From: Escherichia coli
Lineage (GTDB): Bacteria; Pseudomonadota; Gammaproteobacteria; Enterobacterales; Enterobacteriaceae
DNA: 353 nt
Strand: one strand, 5' to 3'
Assembly (NCBI RefSeq): GCF_003334335.1
Contig: NZ_QOWQ01000207.1
Each line of letters begins with the position of its first letter. Position 1 is the first letter of the stretch. Below the pieces are notes generated by a model. It was given only the letters and a program-made list of their open reading frames with translations, did not search any database and was not told where the DNA came from. A program made the translations under genes and the position numbers. Below are positions 1-353 of this stretch, in pieces.

Positions 1-353
1 AACGGACTGTACGCCGTCCAGATATGGAATGTGATGGAGCGCGGCGGCGGAATTTCATTATCCGCGGCGCTGAAAAACGTCAGACCGTCGCGGGTCCACA
101 TCCCCGTGTTTTCACAGATCCACCGCCCGTTGCTCTGGTCAAGCTCAGACTGATGGATCACGCAGCCATGATGTTCACAGAGGTAGAAAACGCTTTCGGG
201 GCTGTCCTTCTCCCATTTAAGGCCAAAAGGCGTGGACTCATCGCCAAATTTCAGATACTGCGCCTCCCCACAGTGCGGGCAGGGCACATAAAAACGCATG
301 AAATGCGCCGACTCGTTGGCCGCTTTTTCGATCTGGCAGGAGCCTTTTATTTT
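1..353 (-). CDS. Phage terminase large subunit, lambda gpA family (homolog of lambda gene A product); internal fragment, partial at both ends
   Basis: Minus-strand frame with codons at 353-351, 350-348 ... 5-3 is open for all 117 codons. The translation contains blocks that I recognise from lambda gpA: CQIE(K/R)AA.ES.HFMRF, CPHCGE.QYLKFGD, TPFGLKW, SVFYLCEH, TRDG, and the C-terminal block TFHIWTAYSP. Plus-strand frames 1 and 2 have stops at 151-153 (tga) and 32-34 (tga). Plus-strand frame 3 is also open but is the exact antisense register of the coding frame. The match to lambda gpA is from memory, not a computed alignment. Confidence 0.93.
162..281 (-). other. Cys cluster C-x2-C-x30-C-x4-C inside the terminase CDS (CPHC ... 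CEHHGC); candidate zinc-ribbon-like metal-binding motif
   Basis: Cysteine codons read directly from the sequence: 279-281 (gca, rc tgc), 270-272 (aca, rc tgt), 177-179 (aca, rc tgt) and 162-164 (gca, rc tgc). The spacing gives CPHC, then 30 residues, then CEHHGC. The same spacing appears in lambda gpA as I recall it (CPHCGEEQYLKFG ... YLCEHNAC). Metal binding is inferred from the pattern, not demonstrated. Confidence 0.45.

Follow-up and report, generated by a model that had tools for sequence, protein, structure and literature searches.

The 353-nt stretch of DNA analyzed here (the window) is an unremarkable internal fragment of a large terminase gene of the phage 21 type from an E. coli prophage, the prophage origin being suggested by exact matches in E. 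coli chromosomes. We consider it very probable that the fragment comes from a prophage of the phage 21 and PhiR12 lineage, that its differences from the large terminase of phage lambda (gpA) are old divergence scattered along the sequence, and that two patches singled out in an initial annotation of the same DNA are parts of the fragment under weaker constraint. The gene takes up the whole window:

Positions 1 to 353, minus strand: internal fragment of a terminase large-subunit gene (gpA/phage 21 gp2 type), recognized from its open frame, DNA matches, Pfam, and PHROG.

The minus-strand frame is the sole frame open across all 353 nt. It spans codons 216–332 of a 642-codon gene, with the first codon at positions 351–353 and bases 1–2 beginning codon 333, and its 117-residue translation reads KIKGSCQIEKAANESAHFMRFYVPCPHCGEAQYLKFGDESTPFGLKWEKDSPESVFYLCEHHGCVIHQSELDQSNGRWICENTGMWTRDGLTFFSAADNEIPPPRSITFHIWTAYSP. 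A megablast search against phage genomes returned 21 records, all from Escherichia phages and nearly all annotated as terminase large subunit. DNA identity to the window is 98% in five PhiR12 phages and 90.9% in gene 2 of phage 21 and its relatives; lambda was not retrieved by this search. A protein-level search does retrieve lambda gpA, at 69.2% identity. Among the complete E. coli genomes searched, six chromosomes hold an exact match (100% DNA identity), and a copy at least 80% identical to the window is present in 1868 of 5426 genomes, at a median of two places per genome. The allele is of the 21 type rather than the lambda type both in DNA identity over the window (90.9% to phage 21 vs. 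68.7% to lambda) and in gene-wide protein identity (91.6% vs. 65.8%).

The exact match in APEC O18 sits inside a 642-codon gene annotated as “phage terminase large subunit family protein,” the only name that RefSeq gives to this common terminase. The genes at that locus are ordered TerS, TerL, W-like (head-tail joining), portal, S49 protease, decoration, major capsid, and FI, which is the head-gene order of lambda and is seen in PhiR12_1, phage 21, and lambda alike. In the full-length protein of the exact match, Pfam identifies GpA_ATPase (PF05876; residues 48–293, E = 7.5e-55) and GpA_nuclease (PF20454; residues 323–601, E = 7.6e-71), and the window fragment on its own already hits PHROG 15 (“terminase large subunit”) at E = 5e-56. 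Despite these strong matches in Pfam and PHROGs, no model of NCBIfam release 20 matched the full-length terminase. Conservation was assessed in a family alignment headed by the exact-match protein, which comprises 104 members at 30–92% identity from a representative search, the first homologue search having given only relatives at 78% identity or more. The catalytic residues E179, D401, D465, and D590 are invariant in this alignment, and K76, R79, and D178 are at least 90% conserved (the Walker A lysine region and the Walker B pair D178/E179); all of these sites lie outside the window. The initial annotation had assigned the window to a homologue of lambda gpA, and the database matches, Pfam on the full protein, and the APEC O18 gene context all agree with that assignment. 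Rfam returned no match on either strand of the window, the repeats found in it amount to short chance matches in two copies, and the open reading frames of the plus strand, 20–40 aa long, run antisense within the coding frame, with no credible second-strand feature.

Several observations concern the state of the gene in its carriers. The portal gene adjoining the terminase in the APEC O18 exact-match prophage (7471–9064 of the locus) is annotated as frameshifted, and strain 25DN has a frameshift annotated in its terminase gene. Because of these annotations, at least some carriers of the window's allele are probably defective prophages. The E. coli database proteins include some of 730–742 aa that are 95–99% identical to the terminase and cover only about 62%; they outscore the full-length 642-aa relatives and look like proteins in which a segment of the terminase was duplicated or fused, or else like artefacts of assembly.

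The relation to lambda was examined in a computed alignment with gpA (J02459) residues 216–332, which is free of gaps, the same residue numbering applying to both proteins. The window is 69.2% identical to gpA in protein and 68.7% in DNA, and 75 of the 117 codons differ, 36 by an amino-acid change and 39 silently. These values contradict the description of most of the window as near-identical to lambda gpA. The window is nevertheless somewhat closer to lambda (69.2% protein identity) than the rest of the gene is (64.4%), the whole gene standing at 65.8%. Against this background, two stretches had been described as markedly divergent:

Positions 120 to 158, minus strand: patch 1, fragment residues 66–78 and protein residues 281–293 (IHQSELDQSNGRW), examined by alignment, alleles, and a structure model.
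Positions 36 to 86, minus strand: patch 2, fragment residues 90–106 and protein residues 305–321 (GLTFFSAADNEIPPPRS), examined by alignment and family entropy.

Both peptides and their coordinates had been given correctly. The Pro-Pro-Pro run ascribed to ccg triplets is likewise present (ccg ccg ccg), at positions 42–50, one base off the 41–49 first given. Residues differing from lambda number 7 of 13 in patch 1 and 9 of 17 in patch 2, compared with 20 of the remaining 87, and the patches are thus about twice as diverged as the remainder. The claim of two markedly divergent patches holds in these raw counts and fails as a claim of concentration. Scanning for the densest stretch at widths of 5, 9, 13, 17, 30, and 42 residues gives p = 0.90, 0.18, 0.43, 0.25, 0.16, and 0.14, respectively, which is no clustering beyond chance, and a runs test on the lambda differences finds 49 runs where 50.8 ± 4.5 are expected (p = 0.38). 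Further groups of differences that had not been flagged lie at fragment residues 2–5, 39–40, 48–53, and 62–63. Across the gene, 19% of segments of equal length reach or exceed the divergence of patch 1, and 14% reach or exceed that of patch 2. The alignment that the initial annotation had itself called for shows differences scattered along the fragment, between flanks that are not near-identical to lambda.

By the Nei-Gojobori method, the patches have pS 0.84 and pN 0.43 relative to lambda, and the sequence outside them has pS 0.66 (dS about 1.6) and pN 0.14; synonymous divergence is high both inside and outside the patches, and no abrupt change in it was found. Since synonymous sites are saturated throughout, the blocks identical to lambda (CPHCGE, QYLKFGD, TPFGLKW, SVFYLCEH, and TFHIWTAYSP) are anciently diverged DNA kept by purifying selection, and do not reflect recent sharing or exchange with lambda. 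Patchwise exchange with lambda, which had been offered as one explanation of the pattern, is excluded.

The window covers the end of the ATPase core and an entire beta-rich insertion. In a published AlphaFold analysis of lambda TerL, the ATPase domain extends over residues 29–366 with residues 239–319 inserted within it, and the insertion is absent from HK97 TerL (PMC10810279). The corresponding part of the window is as follows:

Positions 42 to 284, minus strand: beta-rich insertion subdomain of the ATPase domain, protein residues 239–319, placed by PMC10810279 and the AF2 model.

The AF2 model of the full protein, computed with the 104-member alignment, has a mean pLDDT of 94.1, with values of 90–98 and several short strands over the window, and residues 230–334 modelled alone reach a pLDDT of 92.8 and a pTM of 0.81. 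Foldseek matches the model to the solved large terminases of Sf6, HK97, and T4 (E = 1e-9 to 1e-10) and to that of D6E. A sequence search for a solved structure of the window's own terminase found none. Residues that differ from lambda make up 20 of the 58 in modelled loops and 16 of the 59 in secondary structure (p = 0.43), a nonsignificant difference.

The insertion carries two pairs of cysteines:

Positions 270 to 281, minus strand: first cysteine pair, C-P-H-C (C240 and C243), both invariant in the 104 family members.
Positions 162 to 179, minus strand: second cysteine pair, C-E-H-H-G-C (C274 and C279), the fourth ligand being shifted by two residues relative to most of the family.

C274 is present in 99% of the 104 family sequences. 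A cysteine at 277 occurs in 90 of them (about 90% by sequence weight), and all 14 sequences that have no C277, including lambda, phage 21, and the window, carry a cysteine at 279. The motif thus reads CxxC...CxxC in most family members and CxxC...Cx4C in those of the lambda/21 clade, with four conserved cysteine ligands in two pairs. This either/or placement of the fourth cysteine is good sequence evidence that suggests a Cys4 metal site, and the insertion is probably zinc-binding. Literature searches for a zinc site, metal binding, or a function of the four-cysteine insertion in gpA found no description of one.

The two patches differ in how they vary within the family. In patch 1, G291 and W293 are about 90% conserved family-wide; the window follows the consensus at both, and lambda (A and Y, respectively) is the outlier. 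Phage 21 is identical to the window in this patch, and a sample of 12 distinct DNA alleles from E. coli prophages and phages gives a dN/dS of 0.02. Its mean column entropy in the family (2.55, compared with 2.35 for the gene; 34th percentile) makes it mildly more variable than the rest, and the AF2 model shows two short helical turns followed by a strand at 292–295, residues 288–290 forming a short helical turn. Patch 1 is a fixed difference between the lambda and 21 types, under strong constraint within each lineage.

Patch 2 is also mildly more variable than the gene (mean entropy 2.71 vs. 2.35; 17th percentile), and the stretch has gaps in about 20% of the family, with insertion points after residues 305 and 319. 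Most of its variability lies in a shorter segment:

Positions 45 to 80, minus strand: hypervariable core of patch 2, fragment residues 92–103 and protein residues 307–318, including the loop SAADN (310–314), defined from relatives, dN/dS, and the model.

Among 120 close relatives (at least 78% identity), each position of the core shows 2–7 residue types, making it the most variable stretch of the fragment. Across the same 12 alleles, dN/dS is 0.70 for patch 2 and 0.03 for the remaining 75 codons, and the value of 1.19 for the core rests on few events, namely two or three haplotypes (ADN, RGD, and AGN at 97–99, and T/M at 92). In the AF2 model, the core runs through loops at 303–307, 310–314, and 317–320 between two-residue strands at 308–309 and 315–316, “loop” being a DSSP label of the predicted model only. 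Only the core of patch 2 is truly hypervariable, and as modelled it consists mostly of loops. The suggestion that the patches are variable surface loops thus suits this part of patch 2 and does not suit patch 1, with its dN/dS of 0.02. Mapping onto a structure model, the second check called for in the initial annotation, likewise places the 92–103 core mostly in loops and finds no loop enrichment of the lambda differences overall.

The sites with the most residue types among the 120 close relatives are fragment residues 39–42, 49–56, 73–75, and 92–103, of which only the last two had been flagged. Two spots among the others stand out:

Positions 201 to 239, minus strand: two variable spots, fragment residues 39–42 (positions 228–239) and 49–51 (positions 201–209), each with 2–7 residue types.

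In the model, residues 254–257 lie in a loop (249–258), residues 264–265 form a hairpin turn, and residue 266 is the first of a strand (266–273). The alleles EST/DAS and DS/NK segregate among prophages at these two spots. A further variable site is fragment residue 31 (positions 259–261; protein A246), directly after the CPHCGE block, where the window has Ala and lambda, phage 21, PhiR12, and D2 have Glu. Since the site is highly variable (position entropy 3.5 family-wide) and Ala is also found in many close relatives, the substitution is probably neutral.

Intragenic mosaicism is real in this gene, relative to phage 21 and in phage D2, and takes a form other than that described in the initial annotation. 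Between the APEC O18 gene and phage 21, dS is 2.0 over codons 1–60, 0.82 over codons 61–215, 0.43 over codons 216–313, and 0.044 over codons 314–642; codons 1–60 correspond to the end that binds TerS in lambda and 21 (published work including PMC10810279). The last of these steps falls within the window:

Positions 30 to 59, minus strand: recombination breakpoint interval relative to phage 21, located by maximum chi-square and the dS step.

Maximum chi-square places the breakpoint at gene nt 940, equivalent to position 59 of the window (permutation p < 0.0005), and the next difference is at position 30. The breakpoint lies inside patch 2, and divergence from phage 21 drops about ten-fold downstream of it in the gene. 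In addition to this abrupt change in synonymous divergence, the alleles give four-gamete evidence: all four combinations of EST/DAS (codons 39–41) with ADN/RGD (codons 97–99) occur among prophage alleles, and hence recombination has taken place inside the window. At the level of the locus, APEC O18 5356–7284 and phage 21 gene 2 (709–2637) are mosaic relatives, with 60% DNA identity in the first 60 codons and a divergence that falls to 1.3% from codon 314 onward. The small-terminase genes upstream differ in length, at 510 nt in the APEC O18/PhiR12 type and 549 nt in phage 21.

Phage D2 (OM475427) carries a chimeric terminase that follows phage 21 to nt 165, matches lambda at 100% between nt 172 and about nt 840, and matches phage 21 at 100% from nt 845. 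Its second crossover can be placed on the window, although it is not a feature of the window's own sequence:

Positions 154 to 167, minus strand: position matching the second, lambda-to-21 crossover of D2, which is lambda up to about fragment codon 63, nt 845 being position 154.

Literature searches on phage D2 (OM475427) returned nothing relevant. Intragenic joints of this kind agree with the mosaicism for which lambdoid phages are well known, and with classical work in which the Feiss laboratory reportedly used lambda-21 hybrids to map the specificity domains of terminase.

The pattern seen in the initial annotation could also arise if the gene were essentially lambda A, with the two patches imported by mosaic recombination from another lambdoid phage. 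Such a history would account for the higher divergence of the patches (16 of 30 residues vs. 20 of 87; Fisher p = 0.003, a post hoc value computed on patches already singled out), and intragenic recombination does occur in this terminase family. It founders on the flanks, which are not lambda-like: DNA identity to lambda is 68.7% overall, with no lambda match by megablast, and beyond the patches, too, two of every three synonymous sites differ. Moreover, the whole window, patches and flanks alike, shares 91–98% identity with phage 21 and PhiR12, and the unbiased tests show no clustering. The computed DNA alignment refutes this history, to which we give almost no credence. An interim idea, that the patch 2 region (residues 294–322) is a linker between two domains, came from the Pfam models, which stop at residue 293 and resume at 323 and leave 294–322 uncovered. 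That idea was rejected and is almost certainly wrong: AF2 shows these residues as ordered (pLDDT 97–98) with defined strands, the low-confidence linker of the model lies at about residues 361–380, and the published lambda model makes 239–319 an insertion within the ATPase domain of residues 29–366 (PMC10810279).

A different question is what drives the variability of the core. Residues 307–318 might be under diversifying selection, as a contact with a variable phage assembly partner or with a host defence sensor. The contrast in dN/dS (about 1.2 at fragment residues 92–103 vs. 0.03 elsewhere in the window) points in this direction, as do the ADN and RGD alleles, which differ by four nucleotide changes in three adjacent codons, all of them non-synonymous, and the variability of 92–103, the highest in the fragment among relatives at 78% identity or more. 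Large terminases are, moreover, known targets of Avs sensors, and PDB 8dgc is among the fold matches of the model. Set against this are the very small counts, the reshuffling of alleles by recombination, which inflates pairwise dN/dS, and the proneness of the region to indels together with its having no counterpart in about 20% of the family, as relaxed constraint would predict. A dN/dS near 1 at 92–103 fits relaxed constraint and diversifying selection alike, and we regard the latter as unlikely. A fuller version, in which 307–318 would be a specificity or immune-evasion determinant on the four-cysteine insertion, diversified by selection and shuffled by intragenic recombination, seems to us less likely still; if it were true, the diversity at 307–318 would help the phage to escape terminase-sensing defence or to match a variable assembly partner.

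Under the preferred reading, that of old divergence with patches of weaker constraint, the gene derives from a cos-type temperate phage of the lambda family, of the phage 21/PhiR12 lineage, resident as a prophage in E. coli. Cutting at cos and ATP-driven packaging are established for the terminases of lambda and phage 21 (published work including PMC10810279), and by analogy the window's allele may be expected to serve in the same way, encoding part of a motor and nuclease that would cut concatemeric DNA at cos and pump it into proheads. On this reading the differences from lambda, at about 31% of residues and with saturated synonymous sites, represent the old divergence of lambda-type and 21-type genes, and the identical blocks are kept by purifying selection acting on the insertion's structural core. 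The two patches are the less constrained parts, patch 1 as a fixed difference between lineages and the core of patch 2 as a tolerant, indel-prone segment; this core, which also varies among close relatives, adjoins the recombination joint between this lineage and phage 21.

The window is a fragment of an annotated and very common prophage terminase, a copy at least 80% identical being present in about a third of complete E. coli genomes. The divergence and mosaicism that relate it to lambda and phage 21 are textbook lambdoid biology, with nothing new in kind. The useful outcome is a correction, namely that the allele is of the phage 21 type and does not nearly copy lambda A. It leaves two modest leads, the conserved four-cysteine insertion and the small hypervariable loop on that insertion beside the recombination joint.

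Among known systems, the closest is the terminase of the APEC O18 prophage (WP_047340609.1), which has 100% DNA identity to the window, 642 codons, and the same packaging-gene neighbourhood. The terminases of PhiR12_1/2/4/5 (PV340549 and others) share 98% of the DNA and 116 of the 117 residues, again with 642 codons and the same neighbourhood; they differ at fragment residue 31, with E in place of the window's A, a position that is variable across the family. Phage 21 gp2 (M81255, OL657228) is 90.9% identical in DNA and 91.5% in protein over the window, and 91.6% in protein over the gene. It shares the Cx4C form of the second cysteine pair and an identical patch 1, and differs at ten residues, grouped at fragment positions 31, 39–41, 50–51, 92, and 97–99; relative to the APEC O18 gene its codons 314–642 are 98.7% identical in DNA and its first 60 codons 60%, a mosaic relationship. 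Lambda gpA (641 aa) belongs to the same family with the same architecture, aligns over residues 216–332 without gaps, and has the four-cysteine beta insertion at 239–319. It is unlike the window in its 69.2% protein identity, its saturated synonymous sites, and its A for G291 and Y for W293. More distantly, the ATPase and nuclease folds of HK97 TerL (PDB 6z6d), Sf6 gp2, and T4 gp17 match the model, HK97 being the closest structural relative of lambda TerL (PMC10810279).
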